Of a DNA stretch of 51,691 bases, positions 9,023 through 46,428 are shown one piece after another. Origin of the DNA: a phage; sequence record OZ346160.1. One strand, 5' to 3'. The translations under genes were made by a program, and so were the position numbers. The notes beneath the pieces are model-generated. The model ran no database searches and was not told the origin of the DNA. It was given only the letters and a program-made list of their open reading frames with translations. The first letter of the stretch is position 1. Every line of letters starts with the position of its first letter.

Positions 9023-9413
9023 TTTAATGTTGGCGGCAAGAAAGGCGCTGGCGGCTGAATATGAATCACGATTTAAGATAGCATATGAAAACGTTGATTT
9101 TGTGCCGCCTGGAGATGGTTCTATGTGGTTAAAATTTGACTACATGGAAGCAGACACGGATCGCATATCTCTTGATAGAAAATGTGTTTCTTATATCGGT
9201 TTGGTTCAGGTTGGAATTGTCATTCCTCCTGGCGGCGGCACTGATAAAGCGCGTTTGCTGGCTAAAGAGATTGCGAGATTTTTCTATGATGGTAGAATGA
9301 TTGAAACTGGCTATATTAGCGAGGGGGCAAACGTCCACACATTACTAAAAAGTGAAACAGGTTGGTTATTGCCGATCCGTTTCAGTGTTAGGCTTGATAC
9401 AAAGGAGGAATAA
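9012..9413 (+). CDS. tail terminator / tail completion protein (putative)
   Basis: 133 aa immediately upstream of major tail protein. Confidence 0.4.
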   Translation: MHYDLMLAARKALAAEYESRFKIAYENVDFVPPGDGSMWLKFDYMEADTDRISLDRKCVSYIGLVQVGIVIPPGGGTDKARLLAKEIARFFYDGRMIETGYISEGANVHTLLKSETGWLLPIRFSVRLDTKEE

Positions 9414-9415
9414 TC

Positions 9416-10078
9416 ATGCACTTGCCTAATGGTTCTCAAATTTTCATCGGCGTTAATATGGGTGAGCCTATTCAGGCTACGGCTATTTCAAATGCTGATG
9501 ATCCTGTTTTTACGACTGCAAACACTCAAAGCATCAAAAAAGGCGCTTATGTTCTTATTGAAACATCTTCCTGGGGCAAACTTGTTAGTCGCGTGCTTCG
9601 AGTTAAGGAGGTATCAGATGATGCAAGCGTTACTCTTGAGGGTGTAAGCACGAAAGACACCAATGTTTTTCCGGCTGGTTCTAATACAGCAACTTTCCGA
9701 GAGGTGAAATCTTGGGTAGAGATTCCTTGCGTACAGGATCTTGCGCAGGACGGCGGCGAACAACAGTATTACACTTATCAGTGTTTGGCTGATGACCAGG
9801 AGCAGCAGTTACCGACCTATAAGAGCGCCGTTTCTCTTACCTACACTTTCGCGCATGAATATGATAACCCGATTTATCCGATCTTGCGCGAGGCTGAGGA
9901 ATCCGGCGACGTAACCGCTTTGCGTATGTACGTTCCGAAAGCTAAAGAGATGCGTTGCTGGGCTGGCGTATTGTCCTTTAATGACATTCCGCAAACCACT
10001 ATGAACGAAATGGAAACTGTTTCCCTTTCCGTATCTCTGAAAGGTCGATTTACGTTCTTATCTTCCGACATCAATTAA
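9416..10078 (+). CDS. major tail protein
   Basis: 220 aa; AGGAGG RBS; followed by strong terminator; precedes chaperone and tape measure genes. Confidence 0.6.
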   Translation: MHLPNGSQIFIGVNMGEPIQATAISNADDPVFTTANTQSIKKGAYVLIETSSWGKLVSRVLRVKEVSDDASVTLEGVSTKDTNVFPAGSNTATFREVKSWVEIPCVQDLAQDGGEQQYYTYQCLADDQEQQLPTYKSAVSLTYTFAHEYDNPIYPILREAEESGDVTALRMYVPKAKEMRCWAGVLSFNDIPQTTMNEMETVSLSVSLKGRFTFLSSDIN

Positions 10079-10081
10079 AAC

Positions 10082-10106
10082 AAGGGGCGTTGCGCCCCTT
10101 TTTTCA
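10082..10106 (+). terminator. rho-independent terminator after major tail gene
   Basis: AAGGGGCG-ttg-CGCCCCTT followed by T6. Confidence 0.65.
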
Positions 10107-28251: not shown

Positions 28252-30249
28252 ATGATTCCAAATATCGAAAAACAAATATCAGCGTTAGGCGAGGCAGTAA
28301 TAAAAAGCATCCAAGAGCGATTCACGGTTGGCAATATAGTGCCTTATCCTTATCAGTGCGTTGCGTATGCCGAGATCGCAAAGCGCATGAAAAACTATGA
28401 GCATCCTTTCTTCGTTAAGGCTTCTGTGTCGGCTGGCAAAACTTTGATGTTTGCGATGGTTGCTGCGCAATGCCGCAAAATGGGATTGAAAATGATGGTA
28501 CTTGCTCGCCAAGCTGAAATTGTTGATCAGGATTCGGAAGAGATCAGCAATCTTGGCGTGCCAAACTCAATCTATTGCGCCGGACTGAAAACAAAAAGCG
28601 CATACTTTCCGATCGTAGTCGGTTCTGAGGGCACTGTAGTAAACGGATTGTTTAAGTCGTTAGGTGATTATGTTCCGCACGTTATCGGTATTGATGAATG
28701 TCACCAGGTGGATTGGGAGGATCTCGCTGATGCGATAGAAAATAATGAATCTTACCAGCAGATGACCACTAAGAAGGATTTGCCTGTACTGATTGGAGAA
28801 GAACAGCAATTTGATTCCAATGGCGATCCAATGTTCGGAACAGGGCGCACACAGTACACCGTAATAATCATGGAAATGATGCGCAGGTGTCGCGAGGCAT
28901 ACGGGCACGAATTGCGAATATTCGGTATGACTGGATCTGAGTTTCGCGGCGTGGTTCCAATACTGGTTGAAGATAAGAACAAAAAGGGATTCTGGCGTGA
29001 GCAGGTGACTAACATAGACACAAACTACTTAATCAAATTCGGTTCGGTAGTGCCAACAAATTTCGGCGACGTAGGCGAGCTGGGGTATGACCTTTCAGAG
29101 TTCGAAGCCAGTAGCGAGGATGGCGTTTCAGACTTTGACGCTAAAACATTGCGCAAGATGGAAGAAAAAATCCATCAAGACGCAACAATGACACAGAAAA
29201 TCATGGCTAAAGTCCATGAGATATGCAAAGACAGGAACGGAGTTTTAGTTACATGCGCAGGGGAAAGACACTGCAAGGAGGCCGCCGCCGCACTGCCGCC
29301 AAGCGTTGAATACAGGATCATAACTGGCAAGACTGGAGATAATCAGCGTAAAGAGTGGCTGAGGGAGGCATACGAGGGAAAAGTAAAATACATCTTCCAG
29401 GTACAGGCGCTTACCACTGGCGTTAACGTTCCGTTTTGGGATACTTCTGTAATACTGAGAAAGATAGGATCTCTAACATTGCTTATCCAGCTTTTGGGGC
29501 GCGGTATGCGACTGCTTAAGCAATGGCACATTGAGCAGGGATTCAAGAAAAAAGACCATCTTGTATTGGATTTTGCCGGTACTATGGATGAGTTAGGGGA
29601 TTTGTATTTCGATCCAATCCTTGAGCAAGCGCAATTCCAAAAGAGATTTACAAACGGGAAAGAGCCTAAGACTTGTCCGATATGTGGAACGCTAAACAGC
29701 TTTTACGCTCGCCGATGTATGCACGTAGACGATAACGGGAAGAGATGCGAGCATTTTTGGACTTACAGAATTTGCGAGGACCAGGTAGATCCGAGAACGA
29801 AAAAGATAATCAAGCGCGGTTGCGGAACAAAAAACGACGTAGTGGCGAGAGTATGCCGTTGTTGCGATATTTCTCTTGTCGATCCTAACGAGAAGTTAAG
29901 CGGCAAGCACTACACCAAAAACGATTGGTGCAACGTTAAATCTTTCCGCGTTGATATGACGAAAAACCAGAAAGGAATTGTTTTTTGCTATGAGCTTGAG
30001 GCCAACGGCGACACGTTCAAGGCATACGAAAGATTTTTCCCTGAGTCAGAAAGCAACATTTGCCGGACGATATGGAGAAAAATAGCATTGCAGCACATAC
30101 CGGATCGCAAGATTGCTGGTATGGTGGCGAGCTATAGAAATGCGCGTAAAATAATGTCATACGCTCATCACATCATGCCTCCTGTACGCGTAACGCATCG
30201 CAAAAACGGCAAAGGTGAGGATAACATTGCAAAACGGGAGTTTGTTTAA
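28252..30249 (+). CDS. superfamily-2 DNA helicase with C-terminal zinc-ribbon region
   Basis: 665 aa; Walker A SVSAGKT; DECH box (GIDECHQ); motif VI-like LLGRGMR; C-terminal CPICG..C and CRCCD clusters. Confidence 0.75.
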   Translation: MIPNIEKQISALGEAVIKSIQERFTVGNIVPYPYQCVAYAEIAKRMKNYEHPFFVKASVSAGKTLMFAMVAAQCRKMGLKMMVLARQAEIVDQDSEEISNLGVPNSIYCAGLKTKSAYFPIVVGSEGTVVNGLFKSLGDYVPHVIGIDECHQVDWEDLADAIENNESYQQMTTKKDLPVLIGEEQQFDSNGDPMFGTGRTQYTVIIMEMMRRCREAYGHELRIFGMTGSEFRGVVPILVEDKNKKGFWREQVTNIDTNYLIKFGSVVPTNFGDVGELGYDLSEFEASSEDGVSDFDAKTLRKMEEKIHQDATMTQKIMAKVHEICKDRNGVLVTCAGERHCKEAAAALPPSVEYRIITGKTGDNQRKEWLREAYEGKVKYIFQVQALTTGVNVPFWDTSVILRKIGSLTLLIQLLGRGMRLLKQWHIEQGFKKKDHLVLDFAGTMDELGDLYFDPILEQAQFQKRFTNGKEPKTCPICGTLNSFYARRCMHVDDNGKRCEHFWTYRICEDQVDPRTKKIIKRGCGTKNDVVARVCRCCDISLVDPNEKLSGKHYTKNDWCNVKSFRVDMTKNQKGIVFCYELEANGDTFKAYERFFPESESNICRTIWRKIALQHIPDRKIAGMVASYRNARKIMSYAHHIMPPVRVTHRKNGKGEDNIAKREFV

Positions 30250-30668
30250 TGGCTATAACTGATAAAGGAGATTATCTTGAGTTTTACGAAAGGGATCCAA
30301 CCGACACGAGAAGGGAAGTTAATCACCAGATAGATAGTTTTCAGTGGTTGACTTATGCTCATCCTTATTTGCTGGCGTGGCATACGGTAAACGAGAATGA
30401 GAAGTCTAAAGCAACGGCGATGATTGATCAGCAGTCCGGCTTGGTTAAGGGAGTAAGCGATTTCATCATCCTGATTGGTTTAAACGGAAAATACCCCTTT
30501 GCAGCGATTGAGATCAAACGAGTGAATAAATCAGGCAAGGGGAAAGCATCACCAGTCAGCGATGAACAAAAGGCTTTTTTGCGTCGCGTTCGCAGCTTAG
30601 GAGGATTCGCTGCGGTAGCCTACGGATTCAATCAGTTTAAGTTGGCTATTGAATACATGCTTAAATAG
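30249..30668 (+). CDS. VRR-NUC family nuclease
   Basis: 139 aa; PD-(D/E)xK signature GVSDFIIL..AIEIKR; start overlaps helicase stop (TAATG). Confidence 0.55.
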   Translation: MAITDKGDYLEFYERDPTDTRREVNHQIDSFQWLTYAHPYLLAWHTVNENEKSKATAMIDQQSGLVKGVSDFIILIGLNGKYPFAAIEIKRVNKSGKGKASPVSDEQKAFLRRVRSLGGFAAVAYGFNQFKLAIEYMLK

Positions 30669-30708
30669 CACTTTTTGTTAAAACTGGCGCGATGGATTGC
30701 GCCATAAT
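30664..30708 (+). promoter_or_regulatory. cassette copy upstream of Dam methylase
   Basis: AATAGCACTTTTTGTTAAAAC overlapping upstream stop TAG; hairpin GGCGC..GCGCC; CATAAT at 30703..30708. Confidence 0.55.
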
Positions 30709-30748
30709 TCAATAACACGAGATGGCTTTTAATAGCGGAGAAATGAAA

Positions 30749-31474
30749 ATGGCTAAAGATATTTTAGATAAAGACACCCATGACGCATTCGTTAGCTTTG
30801 AGCAGTTGGAGAGAGAAACGTTTATAGGGAATGCCCTTGCAACTGGAGGCCATTACCAGGCAGTAAAGACAAATCAATATTATAAGGTAAGCGGAAACCG
30901 ATACGCTGGAAGCACTACGCCGGACGTTGTGCGAGATATGTGGAGCACGCCTCAAGAGATCGTGGAGTGGATGGAATCAGAATTTGGTGAATACGATCTC
31001 GATGCGGCAGCAAGCCAGGAAAACGCAGTTTGCGAGAAGTTCTATAGCAAGGAAACAAACTGCTTAAAGCGTTGGTGGGGTAGCAATAAGCACGTATGGC
31101 TTAACCCGCCGTACAGCAACCCAACTCCATTTATCAAGAAAGCAATTGAGCAAATGGAGCACAACAACCAAATTGATGTTTTGTTGCCAGCCGACAACTC
31201 TACAGCATGGTTTTATGAGGCGCAGAAAAACGCGGCTGAAATCATCTGGATCACTGGTGAGGTTTACGAAGAGGGTGGAGTAGAATACTCCCGCACCGGA
31301 AGAATTGCCTTTGTGTCTGGATTGACTGGTGAGCCTGTGCAGGGAAACAACAAGGGAAGCGTGATTTTTGTCATGCGCAAACTTAAAGAAGGCGAGGAGC
31401 AGAAAACGCGATACGTTAAGATCAGCGATATTTGCCCTTCTGTAACCGAACGTCGCGCACGCAAACGGAGCTAA
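30749..31474 (+). CDS. dam: DNA N6-adenine methyltransferase (phage Dam family)
   Basis: NPPY catalytic motif (HVWLNPPYSNP); start chosen at MAKDIL (GGAG 8 nt upstream; alternatives at 30722/30743). Confidence 0.7.
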   Translation: MAKDILDKDTHDAFVSFEQLERETFIGNALATGGHYQAVKTNQYYKVSGNRYAGSTTPDVVRDMWSTPQEIVEWMESEFGEYDLDAAASQENAVCEKFYSKETNCLKRWWGSNKHVWLNPPYSNPTPFIKKAIEQMEHNNQIDVLLPADNSTAWFYEAQKNAAEIIWITGEVYEEGGVEYSRTGRIAFVSGLTGEPVQGNNKGSVIFVMRKLKEGEEQKTRYVKISDICPSVTERRARKRS

Positions 31475-31478
31475 CACG

Positions 31479-31736
31479 ATGGAAAAAGAGAGAAGCGTTT
31501 ATTTAAATGAAACTGGCGAGTGGTTGTTATTTCGCGCTATGGTGTGCGATGCACTTGATAAAAACCCTAACGTGAAAAAGATGATTGATTGCGATCCGTG
31601 GGAATTTTCAAGCGCATTAGATATGAGCTTTGAGGAGACAAGAAAACTCCCGCTTGAAAAATGGCACGAACAAATCAGAAATGACATGCAAGAGTTTGTT
31701 GATTCGTGGAATTTTCAGCACGGAATGATCCACTAA
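31479..31736 (+). CDS. hypothetical protein
   Basis: 85-aa ORF; stop codon embedded in cassette motif. Confidence 0.45.
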   Translation: MEKERSVYLNETGEWLLFRAMVCDALDKNPNVKKMIDCDPWEFSSALDMSFEETRKLPLEKWHEQIRNDMQEFVDSWNFQHGMIH

Positions 31737-31779
31737 TAGCACTTTTTGTTAAAACGCCCGGCCTAGTGTCGGGCATAAT
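31735..31779 (+). promoter_or_regulatory. cassette copy
   Basis: Consensus motif overlapping stop; hairpin GCCCGG..CGGGC; CATAAT at 31774..31779. Confidence 0.55.
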
Positions 31780-31811
31780 TATTTCAACGAAGCAAACATG
31801 AGGAAATAAAA

Positions 31812-31991
31812 ATGGTGGTATTCGATAAACGCGCTTTTAATCTTGCTCAAGAAGTAGCAAAAGGTTCAGTAGAGGGCGGATCAAAGGAAGGATTCCAGTT
31901 TGATTGGGGAATCGCGATGTTCTTACTGAAAGTTGCATACGGTCACGCGCCAATTGAACAAGCGGAGGCATATTATAAGCATGAAGGTTGA
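31812..31991 (+). CDS. hypothetical small protein (59 aa, not in ORF track)
   Basis: ATG preceded by GAGGA; sits one cassette-to-ATG distance downstream of cassette 31735; hand-translated MVVFDKRAFNLAQEV... Confidence 0.35.
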   Translation: MVVFDKRAFNLAQEVAKGSVEGGSKEGFQFDWGIAMFLLKVAYGHAPIEQAEAYYKHEG

Positions 31992-32223
31992 GCAAGGAAG
32001 AGATGCGGTATGGAATCACGCTAAAGAATGCGGTATTGCCGACGATATAAAGAAGATCGCGCAATACTTTGATATTGCAGATGTGAGCATAATTAGCGGC
32101 GACAAGATGACTTTCCTCAAGGAAAGGCCGCGAAAAATGGTAAGAGTTCCAGCAGTTCCAACAAAAATTGATTTCAAAGAGGCAATGGCTAAAATCCGAG
32201 AGCCTCGCAAATATTATAAATGA
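31981..32223 (+). CDS. hypothetical protein
   Basis: Start MKVEQG overlapping previous stop; GGAGG 12 nt upstream. Confidence 0.4.
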   Translation: MKVEQGRDAVWNHAKECGIADDIKKIAQYFDIADVSIISGDKMTFLKERPRKMVRVPAVPTKIDFKEAMAKIREPRKYYK

Positions 32224-32317
32224 GGATAGTTATCATGTGGCGCTTGTTTGTTCTACCGTTACCCGTTATCATCGCTGTTACAGTTATGTACCATATAGTA
32301 ATGAGATAGGTAGCAGA

Positions 32318-33433
32318 ATGAAAAATGTAAAAATTACAGATGAGCAATTCAAGATCGAACGGGCGGCGGGTAAGACATATAAACAGATCGCTCAAGAGTA
32401 CGGGATGAATGTGAGAAGCGTCGAGCGTCGCGCTGCGCGTCTTGCAAAACAAGGACAGGTGTCAACCATTGGAGCGCCTGGTTTTGGTGTTCATGGTGAG
32501 TCAGTAATGACAGACAAAGAAGGCAATATAATCCTCAAGTGGACAAAAACCAGCAAGGACAAAGAGCAATTAGAAGCATTGATGCGCGCAGCAATGGAGG
32601 CGTTTAGCGAGGAAGTGCCGCGATTAGATCCAGTTCCATTGCAGGAGCGTAACTATAATGAAACGCTTTCATTGTATCCGATCTTTGACATGCACTTAGG
32701 AGCTATGGCACATAAGCACGAATGCGGAGAAAATTGGGATACAGCTACGGCTGAGCGCGTTATGAATAACTTTATCGACTATGCTTTGATGTGCGCACCG
32801 GACAGCGAAAAGGCTGTTATCCTGATTGGTGGCGATATGCTGCATAGCGACGGCCTGGAGGCGGTGACACCTGCAAGCGGTCACGTACTTGATCAAGATA
32901 GCCGATATGCAAAATTGGTTTACGTTGCAATCCGTGCAATGCGTCGCGCAATTAATAAAATGCTGTTAAAGCATAAACATGTTGAGGTGCAGATCGTAGA
33001 GGGGAATCACGACCAATCAGGAATGATTTGGCTACGCGCAGCAATGGCGGCAGCATATGAGAACGAGCCGCGCGTTTACGTTGATGTTTCTCCTCGCGTT
33101 GTTCACCACACGCAATACGGAAAAACTTTCCTTGCGTACCATCACGGGCACACAGTGCGCAAACCTGAGACTTTGCTAATGATGTGCGCGTCAGATTGGC
33201 GGGAGGACTTCGGAAACTCAAAAACGATGTATGCGCACGTAGGGCACTGGCATCACCAGACCGTGACAGAAACGTCGCTTGGCATCGTGGAAGTGCATAG
33301 CACCCTGGCGGCAAAAGACGCATACGCCGCGCGCGGTGGCTGGAGATCTCGACGCCGTGCGGCGGTTATCATTTACGACAAAGAGCATGGAGAAGTCGGG
33401 CGATTTGTTCACTATCCAGAAATGATGAATTGA
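32318..33433 (+). CDS. calcineurin-like metallophosphoesterase with N-terminal HTH domain
   Basis: Start MKNVKIT; HTH-like KTYKQIAQEYGMNVRSVERRAARL; phosphoesterase motifs DMH, GGDMLHSD, GNHD, HHGH, GHWHH. Confidence 0.65.
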   Translation: MKNVKITDEQFKIERAAGKTYKQIAQEYGMNVRSVERRAARLAKQGQVSTIGAPGFGVHGESVMTDKEGNIILKWTKTSKDKEQLEALMRAAMEAFSEEVPRLDPVPLQERNYNETLSLYPIFDMHLGAMAHKHECGENWDTATAERVMNNFIDYALMCAPDSEKAVILIGGDMLHSDGLEAVTPASGHVLDQDSRYAKLVYVAIRAMRRAINKMLLKHKHVEVQIVEGNHDQSGMIWLRAAMAAAYENEPRVYVDVSPRVVHHTQYGKTFLAYHHGHTVRKPETLLMMCASDWREDFGNSKTMYAHVGHWHHQTVTETSLGIVEVHSTLAAKDAYAARGGWRSRRRAAVIIYDKEHGEVGRFVHYPEMMN

Positions 33434-33480
33434 TGAATTTTTATTTAAATCAATGACAAATTAAATCAAAAACTTGCAAA

Positions 33481-33510
33481 GGGGCGGCGTTTGTCGCCTC
33501 TTTTTTTTGT
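33481..33510 (+). terminator. terminator-like element before lysis cassette
   Basis: GC-rich imperfect hairpin followed by T8. Confidence 0.4.
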
Positions 33511-33578
33511 TTAATTTTTTACCATGTGCGTTTATCATGCGGTCAATATATTGACTTTAATTAATATGGAGAATAAAA

Positions 33579-33794
33579 ATGAAAGATTTTATTAACGCAG
33601 CTACCGCCGGATCTGGCGGTTCATCTATCGCAAGCGCCGCTACAGGGCAGTTAACCATTGCTATTGCCAGTTTTGTTTTAATGGCTGCATTCGGTGCGTG
33701 GGGCGCTTACCTTCGCTGGCGTGATAGTAAAAAATTCCACGAGGCGATCGAAAAAGGTGATATTCAAAAAGCTATTGAGATCAGGGGCAAGTAA
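33579..33794 (+). CDS. holin (pinholin-like)
   Basis: 71 aa, Gly/Ala-rich hydrophobic segments, charged C-terminus; immediately upstream of SAR endolysin. Confidence 0.55.
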
Positions 33795-34285
33795 TGAGCA
33801 TAAAGAACAGGGTAGCGGCTGCGGCCTTTGGCGTTGCGGTTGCCTTGACTTCTCCACTTCTTGAAGAAATCGAAGGGGTAAGATACAAGCCATACAAAGA
33901 TATTGCGGGGGTATGGACGGTTTGCGCAGGAATCACCGGACCCGATGTTATCCTGGGGAAAACGTACACTAAAAAAGAGTGTGATGCTTTGTTGGCTAAG
34001 CATATCCAGGTTGCCAAAAAGGAAGTTGATAAGCAAGTTAAGGTTGACATTCCTGATAGTATGCGTGCAGCAATGTACTCATTCACTTACAATGCAGGTG
34101 TGGGAGCTTTCAGAAATTCAACAATGCTGAAACTCATCAACCAGGGGAAACTAAAAGATGCTTGCGATCAGCTTTATCGTTGGACGTATTACCACAACCC
34201 CAAAACAGGAAGGCGCGAGAAGTCTAAAGGCTTACTTAACAGGCGCAAGGTCGAATACAAATATTGCACAATGGATCTGAAATGA
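33794..34285 (+). CDS. SAR endolysin (T4-type lysozyme, GH24)
   Basis: Catalytic E-x8-D-x5-T triad ([16 protein letters not shown]); weakly hydrophobic Ala/Gly-rich N-terminal signal-arrest-release segment. Confidence 0.8.
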
Positions 34286-34677
34286 TGAAGAAATTTTTAC
34301 TTACACCAATCGCAATGGCGGTGATCTTGTCTGGATGTTCAAGCGTTACGCCACTGACCGGATTAATCGGCAGTAAGCCGGAAATCACAGCACAGGCTGG
34401 CGCGGAGAACGTGAAGCAGACAGTTGGCATTACAGCAAAGCAGGACGCCAGCACAAAACAGAAAACCACAATAAAGGAATCTTCGGTTGACAAGGTGGAT
34501 ACGTCCAGCAAGAAGGATTTCACAACATCAACCATTCAGGCCAATACCATCAAGGCAGAAAAAATTCAGGTCGTGCAGGGTAATAACGGCAGATGGTACG
34601 ATCCAATAATCATATGCGTGGTTGTGTTCATTGTGCTGATTTGTCTTTACTGGAGGGAAAAGAAAAAGGAGGCTTAA
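34282..34677 (+). CDS. unimolecular spanin (u-spanin)
   Basis: Start MMKKFLL; lipobox LSGCS at N-terminus and single C-terminal transmembrane segment ([16 protein letters not shown]); last gene of lysis cassette. Confidence 0.65.
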
Positions 34678-34693
34678 TGCCTCCTTTATTTTT
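34662..34693. terminator. bidirectional terminator after spanin gene
   Basis: AGGAGGC-ttaat-GCCTCCT followed by TTTATTTTTAT; spanin stop codon lies in loop. Confidence 0.6.
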
Positions 34694-34916
34694 ATGCGTC
34701 GGGCCACATATGAGTTTCGTTTGTTGGCTTGTTCGATTCGTCGTACTGCCTTACTTCAATGCTGCAAGTGTCGCCGTACAGTTCTGCAATCTTGCGCTCA
34801 TTTTCAACCGCCGATTGCTCACTCCATCCAAAATCCCTGTCGTAAATTGTCGGTATTTCAGCAGAAGATCCGTTGTCATGATTATATACGCGAACTACTA
34901 AAAACTTGCTGGACAT
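34692..34916 (-). CDS. hypothetical protein
   Basis: 74-aa ORF downstream of cassette 34953..34997 on - strand. Confidence 0.45.
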   Translation of the reverse strand: MSSKFLVVRVYNHDNGSSAEIPTIYDRDFGWSEQSAVENERKIAELYGDTCSIEVRQYDESNKPTNETHMWPDA

Positions 34917-34952
34917 AATTTTACCTTTTGGTTGTTTCGTTTCGATGAAACA

Positions 34953-34997
34953 AATATACCCGACACTAGGCCGGGCGTTTTAACAAAAAATGCTATT
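34953..34997 (-). promoter_or_regulatory. cassette copy (near-identical inverted copy of 31735..31779)
   Basis: Reverse-complement AATAGCATTTTTTGTTAAAACGCCCGGCCTAGTGTCGGGTATATT. Confidence 0.55.
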
Positions 34998-35113
34998 CCA
35001 TACGCTTTACCGTAACCAGTAATACACCATCATCATTGCATAAAACATGTTCAGTGGTGCTAAAAGCGCGCATATCTGAATAAAGTAGCGTAAGTAAAGC
35101 ATGAATAAAATCC

Positions 35114-35509
35114 TCATGTGATATTGAATTTACGGCGCAGTGCTTCAAGATCTTGTCTATTAGCTTTTGCCTGGAACAATTCATCATCGCCCATCTCCCC
35201 TATTCTCGCCATATCCCTGATCCAGTCGTTGCGCATACCATCCAGGCTATACAATTCGAATCCGAAAGGCCGCTTTGACGATCCTTTGGACCAGTATTTT
35301 CCGCAGACCCCATCTATATAACCAGCCGTCATCATTCTTGCGCAAAATTCCTTAGATGCAAGGCTGGCGAACATTCGCGGCGTAAGTCCGGCGGCCCGTG
35401 CGAGCCGCTCGCATTCTCTATGCTGATAGATAAATTTGGCTATGTGCTGCCTGTTAAACCAGTCGTATGACTCACACCATTTATACAGATCAAGCAAAAA
35501 CATAATCAT
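35114..35509 (-). CDS. hypothetical protein
   Basis: 131 aa, translationally coupled (ATGA) to upstream NTPase gene. Confidence 0.45.
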   Translation of the reverse strand: MIMFLLDLYKWCESYDWFNRQHIAKFIYQHRECERLARAAGLTPRMFASLASKEFCARMMTAGYIDGVCGKYWSKGSSKRPFGFELYSLDGMRNDWIRDMARIGEMGDDELFQAKANRQDLEALRRKFNIT

Positions 35510-37086
35510 CCCAGCAGTATTGGATTGACAAAAATAACACCATTAATAACACAAACATAATTTCTTTCTTCCAGCATTGGCAGCAAGTGCCCTTCTATCC
35601 TCTTCATTACTCCAGCCTGACCAACGAAAGGTTTTACCTTTCTCGCTGATTCGTACAGGGCGCGGATATTCAGAATCCCTTTATTAGCCTTGCCGTGTCT
35701 AGTGATCAATTCAATCAATTTACCCATTTCAGCATCATCACCAGCATAACCAGAAGCATTGGCGGCGCTAATGTATGTTTTGCTCAATTCCTGAAACATG
35801 ATCAGCGCCTCTTGCATTGTTTCCACGTCGATCTCTTTCGACTTCTGCGGGTATCCGGCAGGATTAAACCAGTTGCGGATAACATGCAGGACGGAAGCAA
35901 GCCTGATCACCTGTTTATCCATTTTACCCAGCGCACCGCGTAACATTGTATGAGAATACTTTCCGCCGTCTGCAAGATGCGGTTCCATATCCTGGCGAGC
36001 AATGTTGAGCACTCGCATAGCTGAACGGCTTATTTTCAGCGATATATTTGATTCGCTCATGATGTTATGCACCAATTGATAATATTGGGCCTTCAATTCA
36101 GGATCCACTGCCTCATAGGTAGAATCACCATTTTCATCAATGAATGAGCGACGGCCTAAGAATGATTCCTCACGGACCAACAAAAAGCGCTCACTCACAC
36201 CGATACCGCGCGATCCAGCGTCCATGATTCCGCTTATCGTTTCATCCTGGGCTATAACGCTCATACATCCAAGTGCGCGAAAACTCATGTTATTGTCAGC
36301 ATTAGCACGGGCAATTGATACGTGACCATTATCCCACGCCTTAAGCACTAGCTCACTGTTAGTCTTCCTTTCGCTATTGGCATAGGTCAAGCCTAACAGA
36401 CTGTTAATACTTGTTGCTTCGTCAGATATTACGGCAAAGTTACCTTGCTTGTTGTTGATTTTTGCCAAGCCTTCTGGAGTTGTATCTGAAACAGGGAAAG
36501 TTATATCACACATCTTTTCCAGCTTCTCCTCCAGATCCTCTTTTTCCTGGTATAGAGATTCCATATCAGCGCCTGATCTTTCGCTTTTCATCTCCTTTGC
36601 AAGACCTGCCAACTTTGCCTGTATTTTCTTTCTTTCCTTGCGGCGTTGCTCGTTGATCTTCTCAACTTCCGCAATCATCGGAGCAATAGCCATACTATTG
36701 ATCGCAGATTTACCAGTTGACGGCGGCTGGCTTGTAACGACGTAAAGCGCAGTCGGCTGATCGGTCCCGTGATAGTCAACCGTAAAGCGTCCAAGCATAG
36801 CGGCAGAAATGCAGCCGATAAAGTGCATGTAAGCCGATGATTCAGGGAATTGAACGGATCGCGCAATACTTCGTGATAACTTTCCGACAACATCAATATC
36901 ATTACCAAGAGAAATGACGGGGTAGCGATCGTGACCGCTATTTACATCCTTTACGTCGCCCCAAAAGCTGGACGACTGGCGATAGCCGTTAGCCTGAATT
37001 GATACGCGAACTGGCGAAAGGTTCTGGCTTTCAGCCATAGCGATTATTTGCTGTGGAGTTAATTTGTTCGTTTCTAATGAAAACAT
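35506..37086 (-). CDS. P-loop NTPase of unknown function (DUF3987-like)
   Basis: 526 aa; Walker A-like QPPSTGKS; AGGAG RBS; own cassette upstream. Confidence 0.55.
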   Translation of the reverse strand: MFSLETNKLTPQQIIAMAESQNLSPVRVSIQANGYRQSSSFWGDVKDVNSGHDRYPVISLGNDIDVVGKLSRSIARSVQFPESSAYMHFIGCISAAMLGRFTVDYHGTDQPTALYVVTSQPPSTGKSAINSMAIAPMIAEVEKINEQRRKERKKIQAKLAGLAKEMKSERSGADMESLYQEKEDLEEKLEKMCDITFPVSDTTPEGLAKINNKQGNFAVISDEATSINSLLGLTYANSERKTNSELVLKAWDNGHVSIARANADNNMSFRALGCMSVIAQDETISGIMDAGSRGIGVSERFLLVREESFLGRRSFIDENGDSTYEAVDPELKAQYYQLVHNIMSESNISLKISRSAMRVLNIARQDMEPHLADGGKYSHTMLRGALGKMDKQVIRLASVLHVIRNWFNPAGYPQKSKEIDVETMQEALIMFQELSKTYISAANASGYAGDDAEMGKLIELITRHGKANKGILNIRALYESARKVKPFVGQAGVMKRIEGHLLPMLEERNYVCVINGVIFVNPILLG

Positions 37087-37114
37087 TCGTTAGCTTCTCC
37101 TTTGTGGGCCGTAA

Positions 37115-37159
37115 ATTTTAACGGCCCAATACTACCCCGTTTTGTCAAAAAGTGCTATT
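37115..37159 (-). promoter_or_regulatory. cassette copy (TTGACA variant) upstream of P-loop NTPase gene
   Basis: AATAGCACTTTTTGACAAAAC; hairpin GGGCCG..CGGCCC; TAAAAT at positions 40-45. Confidence 0.5.
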
Positions 37160-37376
37160 TGATCCGCTCTATTGCAACCAGAAGTCGATCAGGCTGGCGG
37201 TCGCTGTAGCATTCTCCTGTAATCCCATCCTTAAACGTAAAGTAAAGCGCCTTATGATATGAAAAACCAATCAGCCAACCTACCGCCGTTTTTTTGATGG
37301 GCCTGACTATATCGCCAGGCTTGAAAGTCTTTGTGGTAGAATGCGTTACTTTGTAACGGTTTTCACTGTTTATCAC
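37155..37376 (-). CDS. hypothetical protein
   Basis: 73-aa ORF coupled to upstream gene; stop inside cassette motif. Confidence 0.45.
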   Translation of the reverse strand: MINSENRYKVTHSTTKTFKPGDIVRPIKKTAVGWLIGFSYHKALYFTFKDGITGECYSDRQPDRLLVAIERIK

Positions 37377-37759
37377 AGATATTTGCCCTCAAACAGATAA
37401 CAGCCGCCAGCAGAGAATCCGACCTCTTCACGGTACAGGTTCCAGCGATCGCCGCACTCATCAAAAACATAACCCGCAACGCTTCCAAGCGGTCGCCCTT
37501 TCTCGATCTGGTATCGCTTGCCCTGCTTAAAGTGCTTTTTGCACGGCATGTTATGATCTACAAACGTGCAAAGAACGGTTTTTGTGTTAATGGCGCGGTA
37601 ATCATCTCGGTTTGCTGGAAGCCAGCGGCTACCCTTAACAAGCGTCTTAACCTGGAACTCTTCCACCTCGATCACATCATCACTTCCTGCAATCTTCTGA
37701 TAAACCGTTTTAAAACGTCCTTTCATCAATACGTTGGTTTCATTACAGATAACATTCAT
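37373..37759 (-). CDS. hypothetical protein (Cys/His-containing)
   Basis: 128 aa; cassette 37789..37833 upstream. Confidence 0.5.
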   Translation of the reverse strand: MNVICNETNVLMKGRFKTVYQKIAGSDDVIEVEEFQVKTLVKGSRWLPANRDDYRAINTKTVLCTFVDHNMPCKKHFKQGKRYQIEKGRPLGSVAGYVFDECGDRWNLYREEVGFSAGGCYLFEGKYL

Positions 37760-37788
37760 GATCAGATCTCCTTTGTTTGTTCGGTGTG

Positions 37789-37833
37789 ATTATGCCAGGT
37801 TTTTACACCTGGCTTTTAACAAAAAGTGCTATT
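37789..37833 (-). promoter_or_regulatory. cassette copy
   Basis: Consensus motif overlapping methyltransferase stop; hairpin CCAGG..CCTGG; CATAAT at 40-45. Confidence 0.55.
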
Positions 37834-38539
37834 TTGAGTTTGACTCAAAGACGGCGCGAGCAAATCCGCGCGGAGTGAGGGAGCGGATCATCTTTGTGCG
37901 CGATGACTTACCGCCAGTTTTGGCCCAGCCTGGATTATCTTTGTCTTCCTCTTTCGGCAGGATTAAAGCGCGCGGAGGAATAACAAAGCCGTTGCCAGTC
38001 CAGAGGCACGTTTTCTTAAAATAGCGATCCCGTGCCGGAATAATATCAGGGAAGTCGGGATGTTTATCATCTTCCGGCAGATAGCCAGCGTAATCGCACG
38101 GATGGAACGTATAATCAGGCTTTCGCCATAACGTTGACAACTTGCCAACCGGATTTTCGATCATGTAAGGAACACCGAAATAATCAGCTATATCAGCCGC
38201 GATTCTGCAAGTGTCGGCGGCCTCATCCTGGAAAGATGGATTCTCAAGGCGTTTTTTGGCCCAATGGCGAGATCCGCTATTTGCAAGGTCGGTGCATGGT
38301 GGGAAGGCCATAATAAAATCAGGATTGCCCCACTCATTATTGATTGCCTTAACATAAAAAGCATCGTCAATCCAGACGTTAACGTATTCGATATTCTCAT
38401 GCTGTATGCGCACTGACTGGTAATCACCGTGATCGCCGCCGTCAGCATTAAAGCAAATGCACTTATAGCCATTATCAGCCCAATCTTTAACGGCTTTACC
38501 AGATCCATCAAATAGGGAGAATATTAAACCTTTATACAT
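37829..38539 (-). CDS. DNA (cytosine-5)-methyltransferase
   Basis: Start at MYKGLIFSLFDGSG (motif I FxGxG); PC motif FPPCTDLA (catalytic Cys); ENV motif MIENPVG. Confidence 0.75.
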   Translation of the reverse strand: MYKGLIFSLFDGSGKAVKDWADNGYKCICFNADGGDHGDYQSVRIQHENIEYVNVWIDDAFYVKAINNEWGNPDFIMAFPPCTDLANSGSRHWAKKRLENPSFQDEAADTCRIAADIADYFGVPYMIENPVGKLSTLWRKPDYTFHPCDYAGYLPEDDKHPDFPDIIPARDRYFKKTCLWTGNGFVIPPRALILPKEEDKDNPGWAKTGGKSSRTKMIRSLTPRGFARAVFESNSK

Positions 38540-38549
38540 CGTAATTACC

Positions 38550-38774
38550 TCAAAACGGAAAACAGCGCGCACAACCAGGATCGAAATCGCATCCACAATC
38601 ATTAACAATCATAGTGGGATCTGCAAATATTGCGCTTGATTCAAGATCCATATCCATATCACCTAAAGCCTCATCAAGAGTCTTAATTTTATATGCCACT
38701 TCAAGCGCCGCCTCTTTATTTAGTCCGGCATCTTCTGCCATTTGAAGGCGTTCAAAAAATCCGTCTTGACTCAT
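38550..38774 (-). CDS. hypothetical acidic protein
   Basis: 74-aa ORF; C-terminal Cys cluster CGCDFDPGCARC. Confidence 0.45.
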   Translation of the reverse strand: MSQDGFFERLQMAEDAGLNKEAALEVAYKIKTLDEALGDMDMDLESSAIFADPTMIVNDCGCDFDPGCARCFPF

Positions 38775-38887
38775 CGCATAATCTCCTTAATAACAACCAA
38801 GATAATAGCCAGGCCAGCAGCAGTAACCAAAAAGCCAGCCGCGCCAATAATCGAATAAAAAAAGAAATCAATAGCTTTATCCATCAT
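38771..38887 (-). CDS. small single-pass membrane protein (38 aa, not in ORF track)
   Basis: Hand-translated MMDKAIDFFFYSIIGAAGFLVTAAGLAIILVVIKEIMR; GAGGTG RBS; stop overlaps next start (ATGA); coordinates approximate. Confidence 0.35.
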   Translation of the reverse strand: MMDKAIDFFFYSIIGAAGFLVTAAGLAIILVVIKEIMR

Positions 38888-38904
38888 TTTTCACCTCATT
38901 TAAA

Positions 38905-38930
38905 AGGCGGCAAAACGCCGCCAGATTAAT
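38905..38930 (-). terminator. terminator-like hairpin (- strand)
   Basis: On - strand GGCGGCG-ttttg-CCGCC followed by TTTTAAAT. Confidence 0.35.
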
Positions 38931-39157
38931 TAAAGAGCGCGCCAACTTTGAATATAGAAAGCGTTTTCTTCCAGTAATTCTTTTACCTGATCTTTATTGT
39001 ATTTGCGCACCTTACCGCCTGGATGGATACCAATAAGATAGCCGCCTTTGCCCTCGGTGATAGTGATTTGGCTAATTCCGCAGGACTTATCAAGTTTTAC
39101 AGCCACGCGGTGATGAGCGTCAATAGTTGCCATAATGTTTAAAACTTTTGCTTTCAT
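38930..39157 (-). CDS. hypothetical protein
   Basis: 75-aa ORF with GAGGA RBS. Confidence 0.45.
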   Translation of the reverse strand: MKAKVLNIMATIDAHHRVAVKLDKSCGISQITITEGKGGYLIGIHPGGKVRKYNKDQVKELLEENAFYIQSWRAL

Positions 39158-42499: not shown

Positions 42500-42770
42500 T
42501 AAGGATTATTTATTTATATGTATCTATATATTCTCTTTTGTTATCTTGGTTATTGTGGTATTTGGTGGGGGTATATAGTTTTTGTGTATCTATATGTGTG
42601 TATGGGTATGTAGGGGCATATATATCTATATGGCACTTTCCGCGAGAAAACTTCGATAACAAGCAATGATAACATTGATTTATAAGGAAAAATAACGCCC
42701 ATATTGTTATTGTGCCACCATATAAAATTGATAAAACACGCGGGAACAAGAAAAAACAGTTGACACATTA
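42500..42770. repeat. AT/TG-rich regulatory region, paralogue B
   Basis: Diverged direct repeat of 21490..21700; internal direct repeat TTCCGC..GATAACAA (about 42450..42680). Confidence 0.5.
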
Positions 42771-42788
42771 AATAGCATTATTGATAAT
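42760..42788 (+). promoter_or_regulatory. sigma70 promoter (start of + strand small-gene array)
   Basis: TTGACA (42760..42765) - 17 nt - GATAAT (42783..42788); AGGAGG RBS and ATG 42817 follow. Confidence 0.6.
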
Positions 42789-42816
42789 GCCCACACCTAA
42801 CAACCAGGAGGAAGAA

Positions 42817-43281
42817 ATGAGCGAGCAATCATTCACTGACACGCTGCGCCGTGCCGCTATTATGCTGGCTAATGGCGAGGAAGAGACGATCAAGATTCCT
42901 GACGCGTATTTGCAGGTCCACATGTTCGGCAAGAAGTCGGCAAGCAATCCGGCGGCCTACATTCGCCAGATCATGAGTCGAGTGCCAGAAGTCGCCGAGC
43001 GGGGGCGCGTATCCGTTACCCGTGGCGTTTACGGGCCGGAAGATGAAAACTTCGGTAGCACTTTCTACGAGGTAAGGATTGTTGAAGGCCGTCGCAAGGT
43101 TTACAACAAAGAGGCACTGGAAAGGGCAGTACGCCAGGCTAAGCGCAAGGTTGCAGAGGCGATCATTGATATGTCACCCAACCTGGCAAACTATGCGCCG
43201 GAAGAGTATGAAACATTATCAAAGGCCGTCGCTGACTTTCACGCGATGATCAAAAAAACTTTCCTGGAGGATGAGCAATGA
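42817..43281 (+). CDS. hypothetical protein
   Basis: Start MSEQSF with AGGAGG RBS; first gene after consensus sigma70 promoter. Confidence 0.5.
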   Translation: MSEQSFTDTLRRAAIMLANGEEETIKIPDAYLQVHMFGKKSASNPAAYIRQIMSRVPEVAERGRVSVTRGVYGPEDENFGSTFYEVRIVEGRRKVYNKEALERAVRQAKRKVAEAIIDMSPNLANYAPEEYETLSKAVADFHAMIKKTFLEDEQ

Positions 43282-44108: not shown

Positions 44109-45002
44109 ATGTTAAAACTTGCTGACATTAAATTCCCGATCACCTTCGAATCTCGCGGCATTGGTCATTACATTTTTACCGATGAAAAAACATGCCATAA
44201 GGTTGATATGAATAGCGACAAACTAAGCCCATCAACAATGGAGATTGAACACTTTATTGATGCACACAATACGCACTACCACGCCCTTAAAGACTATGGC
44301 TATGCAATGCCAGGCTACACATGTTTGCACTACAAGCCATATAAGGGCCAGGTGTTACCAGTGCGCTCACCGGAACGCGCAGAGATTCCGATGGTCCACA
44401 TGAAAACCTGCGACTACAAAAAGCTGTGGTGCTTAAGCGTGGATAATATCAAGTATCCGATCACGTTCCACACGACTGGTAAGTCAACGATTCGCTACAC
44501 ATCGCGCGACAATGGCGTTTATAGCGATGGCACGAAATCAGAGTTGAAAGTTGATTTCTTTGTCAACGGTCACAACAAATTCAATCCGCACAACGAAGAG
44601 GATAAAGTGTACTACGTGGAAGACATTACAAAACACTTGTTTGGAGAAACTCCATTCGGCGGCGGAAAGACGTCAATTCAAAAAATCATTGGCGAGGAGA
44701 TCCACAAAGCGGCTGCCGAAATGAAAGCGCCTGGAGGATGGCGTATTGATAAGAGCGCCTTTGCAAATCAAGAAATCGTAACGCAGGGCGCGATTGAAGA
44801 TATGCCAGTTGCAGCCACGCTAAAAGGAGTCCGGCTTGATGACGGCACCTGGTATGAATTAACGGCTACACCAAAGACGATCGAGATTCATGATGATGTT
44901 GTTATTCTCCTGCTTCACTATGGCGGCACTAAAAACCGGACTGTTGCGGGTGAGATCAGCATCAAGCGCGGAACGATGGTTAAGTGGAAGGTCAAAGTGT
45001 AA
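44109..45002 (+). CDS. hypothetical protein with internal tandem duplication
   Basis: 297 aa; repeated segment (LADIKFPITFESRG.. and VDNIKYPITFHTTG..). Confidence 0.5.
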   Translation: MLKLADIKFPITFESRGIGHYIFTDEKTCHKVDMNSDKLSPSTMEIEHFIDAHNTHYHALKDYGYAMPGYTCLHYKPYKGQVLPVRSPERAEIPMVHMKTCDYKKLWCLSVDNIKYPITFHTTGKSTIRYTSRDNGVYSDGTKSELKVDFFVNGHNKFNPHNEEDKVYYVEDITKHLFGETPFGGGKTSIQKIIGEEIHKAAAEMKAPGGWRIDKSAFANQEIVTQGAIEDMPVAATLKGVRLDDGTWYELTATPKTIEIHDDVVILLLHYGGTKNRTVAGEISIKRGTMVKWKVKV

Positions 45003-45539: not shown

Positions 45540-45721
45540 TTGTCTACGTTGTGCATGGTGATATTTACTACGACGGAGAATACTTTGAGGGAGCTTTCAG
45601 CGAATTTGATAAGGCAGAACAGCACGCTGAGACGCTTACGGATTGTTACGACGAAGTAACAATACGCGAGATAAAACTTGATGATCCAACATATGATGGC
45701 GACAAATGGAACGTAAAATGA
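45536..45721 (+). CDS. hypothetical acidic protein
   Basis: 61-aa ORF coupled to neighbours. Confidence 0.4.
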   Translation: MIVYVVHGDIYYDGEYFEGAFSEFDKAEQHAETLTDCYDEVTIREIKLDDPTYDGDKWNVK

Positions 45722-46428
45722 AAAAATACACTTTCGAACTGTGGGGCAAAAAGTACGAATTAATCACCAGCAAGCCGATTGTTATCGTTGACCTGGACGG
45801 CACATTATCGGACGGATCGCATCGTTTGCATTTGCTGCCAACTGAAAACTTGCACCTTACGGAATCGTGGCGCGAGTTTAACAGGGCCGCCGCCGGAGAT
45901 TCACCGATTAAAAGCACTATCGCGGTTATTAACGGTTTATGGGTGTCGGGATTTGCCATCGTCATCTTGACCGGACGCAGCGACGAGGTTCGCTATGAAA
46001 CCTGCAAATGGTTGAATGAGAACGGCGTGAAGTTTGACGAAATCATCATGCGCCGCCAGGAGGACAACCGAAAGGATACGGTTATTAAAGAAGAAGCCTT
46101 GCGCGCTATTGGCCTGGACAACATTGTTTGCGCCTTTGACGATTCGCCTAACGTGGTTAAGCACTTCCGCAGCTTGGGGATCACAACCTATCAGGTCACG
46201 GAATACGACAAGCCACACGCTCACATACAATCTCACGGCGTGGAATCAATCAAGATCACGAAGCGCGCCCGATTCGTCGGCAGCAAAGACAGCCTGGTCA
46301 ATGCCAGTTTTACCAGAGGAATAGCCTATGACGTTGTTTCTTATCATGACAAGAGTTTTATAGTTCATGATGATTCTGGATGCGCCTGGTCATTCAATCA
46401 TAGTGACGGCGATTTTGTTAATGCGTAA
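45718..46428 (+). CDS. HAD-superfamily phosphatase (polynucleotide 3'-phosphatase-like)
   Basis: Start MKKYTF; HAD motif I VIVDLDGTL near N-terminus. Confidence 0.6.
   Translation: MKKYTFELWGKKYELITSKPIVIVDLDGTLSDGSHRLHLLPTENLHLTESWREFNRAAAGDSPIKSTIAVINGLWVSGFAIVILTGRSDEVRYETCKWLNENGVKFDEIIMRRQEDNRKDTVIKEEALRAIGLDNIVCAFDDSPNVVKHFRSLGITTYQVTEYDKPHAHIQSHGVESIKITKRARFVGSKDSLVNASFTRGIAYDVVSYHDKSFIVHDDSGCAWSFNHSDGDFVNA

Follow-up and report, generated by a model that had tools for sequence, protein, structure and literature searches.

The best-described counterparts of the genes considered here are the Dam of phage T1 and the Dcm of phage K42. Our subject is a stretch of 51,691 nucleotides of phage DNA (sequence record OZ346160.1), referred to in full length as the window, which encodes a Dam-type DNA N6-adenine methyltransferase at positions 30749 to 31474 on the plus strand and a compact C5-cytosine DNA methyltransferase ("Dcm-like") at positions 37829 to 38539 on the minus strand. 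T1 Dam (M.EcoT1Dam) is the classic enzyme. It methylates GATC, as T1 DNA from a dam-negative host stays DpnI sensitive and this sensitivity is lost upon deletion of the phage dam gene (2023 mBio study, PMC10470545). Host Dam methylates T1 DNA just partly (PMC10470545). Deletion of T1 dam lowered the burst size by about 40% without any restriction system, and did so also in dam+ hosts (PMC10470545). T1 has no Dcm-like gene.

The orthologue of the cytosine enzyme has already been characterized, in K42, as a trigger of retron Ec86. Disruption of the 711-bp dcm gene of K42 led to escape from the retron, and expression of this gene was toxic only with the retron present (bioRxiv 10.1101/2023.08.16.553469). 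With LC-MS (liquid chromatography coupled to mass spectrometry), the authors detected 5-methylcytosine (5mC) in the multicopy single-stranded DNA (msDNA) of the retron upon K42 Dcm expression; the quadruple mutant C82A/E128A/K175A/K176A was inactive, and the 5mC signal was gone (10.1101/2023.08.16.553469). When the CCTGG of the msDNA was changed, phage K42 no longer elicited the response (10.1101/2023.08.16.553469). Later papers treat K42 Dcm as an established retron trigger. According to the published work, Dcm triggers Eco1/Ec86, while Dam triggers Sen2/Eco9.

The window is a Warwickvirus-like (Drexlerviridae, Tempevirinae) T1-like coliphage genome with two orphan DNA methyltransferases. By Megablast, 85 phage records covered at least 80% of positions 30000 to 39000, the closest being the Escherichia phages MikeNSara, vB_Eco_Sip, tiwna, FritzSarasin (Bas04), and tonijn (98.4 to 98.7% identity). 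FritzSarasin, whose record is classed as Drexlerviridae, Tempevirinae, Warwickvirus, was 98.5% identical over this region. It carries both methyltransferase genes, labeled "Dam-like N6-adenine methyltransferase" (bas04_0035) and "Dcm-like C5 cytosine methyltransferase" (bas04_0049). The Dcm-like proteins of the window and of phage orkinos are 100% identical, and the DNA of the window gene is 99.6% identical to those of FritzSarasin and tonijn. We consider it probable that this phage carries a T1-type GATC Dam together with a minimal C5 enzyme acting most probably at CCWGG, that each would shield only its own motif against cognate restriction, and that sensing by retrons would be the cost.

The initial annotation had placed two methyltransferases of different chemistry in this region. 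Both open reading frames (ORFs) proved to be real, with best-supported starts at the ends given above, and both encode DNA methyltransferases, one a T1/HP1-type N6-adenine enzyme and the other a C5-cytosine enzyme. For Dam, the longest ORF begins at the in-frame ATG at 30722 and would give 250 amino acids (aa). The ATG at 30749, which yields 241 aa, lies 8 nt downstream of a GGAG Shine-Dalgarno sequence (30737 to 30740, plus strand) and is the start used in the FritzSarasin annotation; it is the best-supported start. The protein matched Pfam PF05869 (E = 1.1e-61, 207.9 bits; cutoff, 28.1), the NCBIfam equivalog TIGR01712 (E = 1.2e-53, 181 bits; cutoff, 97.05), and PHROG 111. The NPPY catalytic motif reported for this ORF was present at residues 119 to 122 (31103 to 31114, plus strand). 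It is invariant in the Dam proteins of T1 and phage KarlJaspers (Bas06), as are long stretches flanking it. Overall identity was 67% over 218 residues with T1 Dam (YP_003925.1) and 84% with KarlJaspers Dam. The window and T1 enzymes share NPPY and a similar length, and the two phages share the gene order helicase, VRR-NUC-like ORF, Dam; the first 20 or so N-terminal residues of the two proteins differ. Relatives of this Dam are encoded in about 1,900 phage records. A PDB sequence search with Dam returned no related solved structure. The profile matches and the T1 relationship lend good support to the prediction that ORF 30749-31474 encodes a T1/HP1-type phage Dam, an S-adenosylmethionine (AdoMet)-dependent N6-adenine methyltransferase.

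The longest ORF of the cytosine enzyme opens with a TTG at 38608. A start at the ATG at 38539 gives a protein of 236 aa and a gene of 711 bp, the same as the gene studied in K42. This ATG is preceded by a GAGG ribosome-binding site (38548 to 38551, minus strand), and the upstream ORF 38550-38774 has its stop codon overlapping that site. Escape mutations in K42 lie 9 bp upstream of the dcm start, at the position of the equivalent GAGG (10.1101/2023.08.16.553469). ATG 38539 is thus the best-supported start. In the FritzSarasin record, dcm is annotated as 774 bp (9332 to 10105 of locus L001; the extension corresponds to 38540 to 38608 of the window), so that its start and the upstream ORF overlap; better supported is the 711-bp start, which has the GAGG and was used experimentally. 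As the initial annotation had said, the gene sits in a minus-strand array, which that annotation presumed to be early, within a block of mostly small ORFs at about 34.7 to 41.5 kb.

The FxGxG and PC motifs that had been attributed to this ORF were both found, the former as FDGSG and the latter as PPCT. The reported ENV does not occur literally, the sequence reading ENPV. FDGSG is motif I, the AdoMet-binding loop (residues 10 to 14; 38498 to 38512, minus strand), and 27 homologues all share its G12, S13, and G14. PPCT is motif IV (residues 80 to 83; 38291 to 38302, minus strand) and contains the putative catalytic Cys82, which does not vary among 43 homologues with identities as low as 33%. The ENPV stretch (E128-N129-P130-V131; 38147 to 38158, minus strand) represents motif VI; hhalign aligned it with ENV in E. 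coli Dcm, and E128, N129, and P130 are invariant in the 43 homologues. Close to the C terminus lies IRSLTPRGFARAV (residues 218 to 230; 37850 to 37888, minus strand), with I218 to G225 invariant in 27 homologues, which we take to resemble motif IX of C5 methyltransferases. It is near the protein end, and no clear C-terminal motif X was seen in the cytosine enzyme. The variable region, of only about 30 residues, lies between the last core strand (177 to 182) and the helices starting at residue 202, and is a part of lower confidence. QxRxR is absent from the protein; according to the superposition by the K42 authors, its place is taken by YFKK (residues 173 to 176; 38012 to 38023, minus strand), at the position of motif VIII, where Y173 is invariant and K175 nearly so. 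The same authors proposed that K175 and K176 are substrate-binding residues (10.1101/2023.08.16.553469).

The family to which this protein belongs is large and escapes the usual profiles. PHROG 757, "DNA methyltransferase," matched the protein at 1e-85, and no Pfam or NCBIfam model matched it even at permissive thresholds, for PF00145 at E values up to 10; PF00145 was weakly touched by 5 of the 43 homologues (best E value, 0.0039). Homologues formed 3034 clusters at 90% identity and 1195 representatives at 50% identity, mostly of 210 to 260 aa, and relatives occur in about 1,500 phage genomes from several families. PDB searches with phmmer and with a profile gave insignificant hits only, among them DNMT3B (E = 0.6) and the HaeIII methylase (E = 0.7); the DNMT3B alignment pairs the FDG and PC motifs with those of the cytosine enzyme. 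The protein has the C5-methyltransferase fold. The closest solved structures are the catalytic domains of DNMT3A and DNMT3B, at 13 to 18% identity and with a TM-score of only 0.4 to 0.57; these are CpG-acting oligomers with chains of about 270 to 290 aa, longer than the 236 aa of the phage protein. Together, these features give good support to the view that this is a minimal and divergent C5 methyltransferase whose nucleophile is Cys82, with Glu128 in the ENV-equivalent motif.

E. coli Dcm and M.EcoRII (CCWGG, PF00145) share the chemistry of the phage enzyme and probably its target motif. However, E. coli Dcm has 472 aa, twice the length of the phage protein, and the two have no significant sequence similarity: hhalign gave a probability of 0.65% (E = 0.089) over 64 columns, covering motifs IV to VI. 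By this comparison, the cytosine enzyme is a functional analogue and distant fold relative of E. coli Dcm and not its orthologue. The name "Dcm-like" thus masks that the two sequences are unrelated, and CCWGG is a target that we infer.

The link to K42 is much closer. The cytosine enzyme shares 90% identity with KarlJaspers Dcm in a gapless alignment, and the K42 genome is related to that of KarlJaspers at 95.4%. The KarlJaspers and K42 Dcm proteins have the same length (236 aa, 711 bp) and the same C82, E128, K175, and K176 positions as the window protein. Their genes also have the same ribosome-binding site context and the same place upstream of a DUF3987 helicase. KarlJaspers Dcm differs from the window protein by 24 substitutions, mostly at residues 23 to 75 and 113 to 117.

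We then counted recognition sites in the window. GATC occurred 310 times (308 expected) and CCWGG 126 times (126 expected), so neither motif is avoided. By comparison, 6-bp palindromes taken together were found 518 times against 824 expected, and 24 of the 64 were absent, among them TCCGGA (0 observed/19.9 expected), AAGCTT (0/19), GGCGCC (0/16), AGGCCT (0/13.8), GATATC (0/12.7), and ATCGAT (0/10.8). The window has 0 EcoKI, 2 EcoRI, and 0 EcoRV sites. Regarding palindromes that contain GATC, TGATCA, at which Dam methylation blocks BclI cleavage, was not depleted (30/24), and GGATCC was (5/16.5). CCSGG was depleted about 4-fold (5 observed, 21.3 expected) alongside CCWGG at expectation; provided that the CCWGG sites carry methylation, this would be consistent with evasion of enzymes that cut CCNGG. 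T1 showed the opposite of the window on CCSGG (65/44.9). The AvaII/SinI site GGWCC was near expectation in the window (18/21.7) and nearly absent from several relatives: 4 sites against 181 expected were found in the pooled group with 64 to 71% Dcm-like identity (L011-L041 and L058), 2 against 34 in phage IME347, and 0 against 23 in phage SRT8. Site avoidance is therefore lineage specific.

Motif counts were compared across relatives in 56 IMG/VR loci around Dam relatives and at least 19 loci around relatives of the DUF3987 helicase, to which the complete genomes of T1, SRT8, IME347, and Rtp were added. Both methyltransferase genes were present in the same arrangement in 52 of 75 loci. In the 68 Dam-carrying loci, the observed/expected ratio of GATC was 0.74 to 1.37 (median, 1.02), and in the 5 assessable loci lacking Dam it was 0.15 to 0.36. 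The whole genome of Rtp has neither gene by tblastn, and it contains 72 GATC sites against 207 expected. In the 45 loci with a full-length Dcm-like gene, the ratio for CCWGG was 0.79 to 1.31 (median, 1.10). Among those without the gene, IME347 (Badaguanvirus) has 4 CCWGG sites against 74.8 expected, SRT8 (Sertoctavirus) has 8 against 68.1, and one group of four loci (L080-L083) showed ratios of 0.21 to 0.28. This is the pattern expected if each enzyme protects one motif and its carriage replaces purging. The k-mer counts also favor CCWGG, independently of the K42 work, as the motif of the cytosine enzyme.

Three loci (L056, L060, and L061) were considered as contradicting this pattern, having a Dcm-like match and no CCWGG; we rejected this, as their gene copies are truncated, frameshifted, or rearranged. 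The decay consists of loss of the N-terminal motif, frameshifts, or an inverted duplication (L056, 17261 to 18041; L060, 19097 to 19807; L061, 16289 to 17114). These three loci have 0 to 1 CCWGG sites against 26 to 28 expected, which suggests that loss of the Dcm-like gene was accompanied by CCWGG purging.

Several observations argue against, or soften, the interpretation of two narrow protective enzymes. T1 and the Rtp-like phages lack the Dcm-like gene and are only mildly depleted in CCWGG (0.82 and 0.78 to 0.87, respectively), and two loci (L048 and L079) have an apparently shortened Dcm-like copy, yet normal CCWGG. The nominal Mann-Whitney P values of 6e-5 and 2e-4 overstate independence, as the loci are kin; about six lineages lacking Dcm and two lacking Dam are involved. 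Furthermore, since there is no significant similarity to E. coli Dcm, CCWGG specificity is not transferable by homology. In K42, the CCWGG assignment is based on analogy to host Dcm and on msDNA mutants that could also disturb effector binding, and those experiments used a dcm+ host. A direct methylome of these phages was sought in the literature, with no relevant result. Finally, the loss of T1 burst size without restriction means that Dam, by analogy, may have a physiological role beyond antirestriction.

Some of these points would be accommodated if the cytosine enzyme were active on a target other than CCWGG, for instance the outer C of CCWGG, or a motif that is shorter or less strict. The lack of homology with the E. 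coli Dcm recognition domain, the recognition region of only about 30 residues, and the indirect nature of the K42 evidence would all allow this. However, retention of CCWGG in particular goes with an intact gene, and at least 5- to 20-fold purging of it goes with an absent or decayed gene in several lineages. The loss of the K42 response after the CCTGG change also argues for this motif. In addition, McrBC cuts at RmC, so a methylated C that follows a purine is an exposure, and methylation in that context would endanger the phage in the K-12 hosts used for isolation. We therefore regard a different target as unlikely.

A second alternative is that the methyltransferases serve mainly phage physiology (for example replication, packaging, or evasion of mismatch repair or Vsr), restriction protection being a side effect. 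The T1 burst phenotype, which is seen even in dam+ hosts, speaks for it. Conversely, the complementarity between methylating and purging across relatives is a prediction of selection by site-specific nucleases. Physiological and antirestriction roles are, moreover, compatible with each other, and we give physiology as the main function a low probability, comparable to that of a different cytosine target.

Next to these stands the claim of the initial annotation that dual modification suggests broad protection against restriction systems. Two modification chemistries do occur in one phage, and FritzSarasin has been described among the few highly restriction-resistant Drexlerviridae. We assessed this claim with the published restriction phenotypes in the BASEL S5 table and its raw efficiency-of-plating (EOP) data. 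FritzSarasin has 4 EcoRI sites and plates on EcoRI hosts at an EOP of 0.004 to 0.012, a restriction of about 100-fold (BASEL). It has 52 EcoCFT_II sites and an EOP of 2e-4 to 1e-3 with that system, corresponding to 10^3- to 10^4-fold restriction (BASEL). With 0 sites each for EcoKI, EcoCFT_I, and EcoRV, it was unrestricted by these three systems (BASEL), and its escape from them is due to the absence of sites. The resistance of this phage thus matches site absence, and it is restricted wherever sites exist. KarlJaspers, which also carries both genes, has 0 EcoRI sites and was not affected by that system; with 1 EcoRV site, it was lowered about 10-fold by EcoRV, and the two type III systems, EcoCFT_II and EcoP1, restricted it strongly (BASEL). 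According to the BASEL authors, resistance to restriction showed no simple relation to the methyltransferase genes that a phage carries. The heavy avoidance of 6-bp palindromes in the window would also be needless under broadly protective methylation. The claim of broad protection was not borne out by these data, and we hold it to be very improbable. Instead, the phenotypes and site counts point to a predicted protection that is narrow and motif specific, covering GATC and probably CCWGG, with site avoidance dealing with most other palindromes. Least probable of all, by some distance from the alternatives of physiology and a different target, is that the Dcm-like protein performs another chemistry (carboxymethylation with carboxy-S-adenosylmethionine or Dnmt2-type tRNA methylation), given the 5mC detected in DNA by LC-MS with the K42 orthologue and a best match to DNMT3B, a DNA enzyme.

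According to our model of two motif-specific enzymes, Dam would place an N6-methyl group on the adenine of GATC and complete the methylation of phage DNA, which replicates too fast for host Dam to finish the task. The cytosine enzyme would form 5mC through Cys82, Glu128, and AdoMet, most probably at CCWGG. By the established RmC rule for McrBC, the cytosine that is modified would not be expected to lie after a purine, since these phages were isolated on K-12 hosts. Each enzyme would shield only its own motif, short and frequent in both cases (GATC at 310 sites, CCWGG at 126). Restriction enzymes of the MboI/DpnII and EcoRII/SsoII types would be the likely opponents, with antirestriction as the presumed selected function. 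Carriage of the enzymes would replace purging of the motifs, while other type II sites would be handled by strong palindrome avoidance. Methylation would have a cost, in that the same enzymes can be sensed by retron defenses.

The ORF map around the two genes follows the T1 plan. Structural genes occupy the plus strand up to about 21 kb, and recombination genes come next. They are followed by tail fiber, primase, and regulator genes on the minus strand and by a plus-strand group of helicase, VRR-NUC protein, Dam, exonuclease, and lysis cassette. The minus-strand block at about 34.7 to 41.5 kb includes the DUF3987 helicase as well as the cytosine methyltransferase, and a plus-strand block of small genes begins at about 41.8 kb. 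Within that last block we noted a DUF7174 protein (42781 to 43281; E = 2e-28), a 297-aa ORF without a Pfam match (44109 to 45002), and a polynucleotide-kinase-type HAD phosphatase (45706 to 46428; E = 9e-21). Ten further ORFs at 40 to 50 kb were examined, and no third methyltransferase was found among them.

A scan of 30 to 44 kb for consensus promoters and terminators returned fewer promoter-like sites than shuffled sequence. A near-consensus sigma-70 promoter-like site, TTGACA-17 nt-GATAAT, lies at 42760 to 42788 (plus strand), near the start of the plus-strand small-gene block and about 1.3 kb past the end of the minus-strand block at about 41.5 kb; it overlaps the listed start of the DUF7174 ORF. 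An identical G+C-rich hairpin of 18 nt, GCCCGGCCTAGTGTCGGG, occurs twice on opposite strands (31756 to 31773, plus strand; 34959 to 34976, minus strand), against a chance expectation of 0.01 copies. Both copies have a T-rich tail after the hairpin and a small ORF just upstream, and they are probably reused terminators. A symmetric hairpin, AAAGGAGGC...GCCTCCTTT (34665 to 34687), scores as a terminator on both strands and is located exactly at the junction of the plus-strand lysis genes and the minus-strand block. Closer to the cytosine gene, a terminator-like hairpin, GGCGGCGTTTTGCCGCC followed by TTTT (38906 to 38922, minus strand), is located within the minus-strand block; the methyltransferase start is about 370 nt downstream of it. 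Because of this hairpin, the gene may need read-through or a promoter of its own.

The presence of the two genes is itself already known: both are annotated in dozens of near-identical GenBank phages and are ordinary for Drexlerviridae. The residual interest is modest and lies in the compact C5 family that is invisible to Pfam. We tentatively propose, as a reading that we would not yet favor over its negation, that the Dcm-like protein is one of a large lineage of minimal C5 methyltransferases, unseen by Pfam and of about 230 aa, with Lys-Lys in place of the motif VIII arginines and a recognition region of only about 30 residues, which would nevertheless have gained a 5-bp CCWGG specificity independently of host Dcm; an intact copy and a purged motif would be alternative states in Drexlerviridae, with decay of the gene followed by loss of the motif. 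The methylate-or-purge pattern also provides a cheap, testable prediction of specificity. For the biology of these phages, two methyltransferases should not be taken as broad antirestriction armor, as restriction sensitivity in the group follows site counts. Together, these comparisons suggest that the enzymes shield the phage from restriction and at the same time make it vulnerable to retrons.

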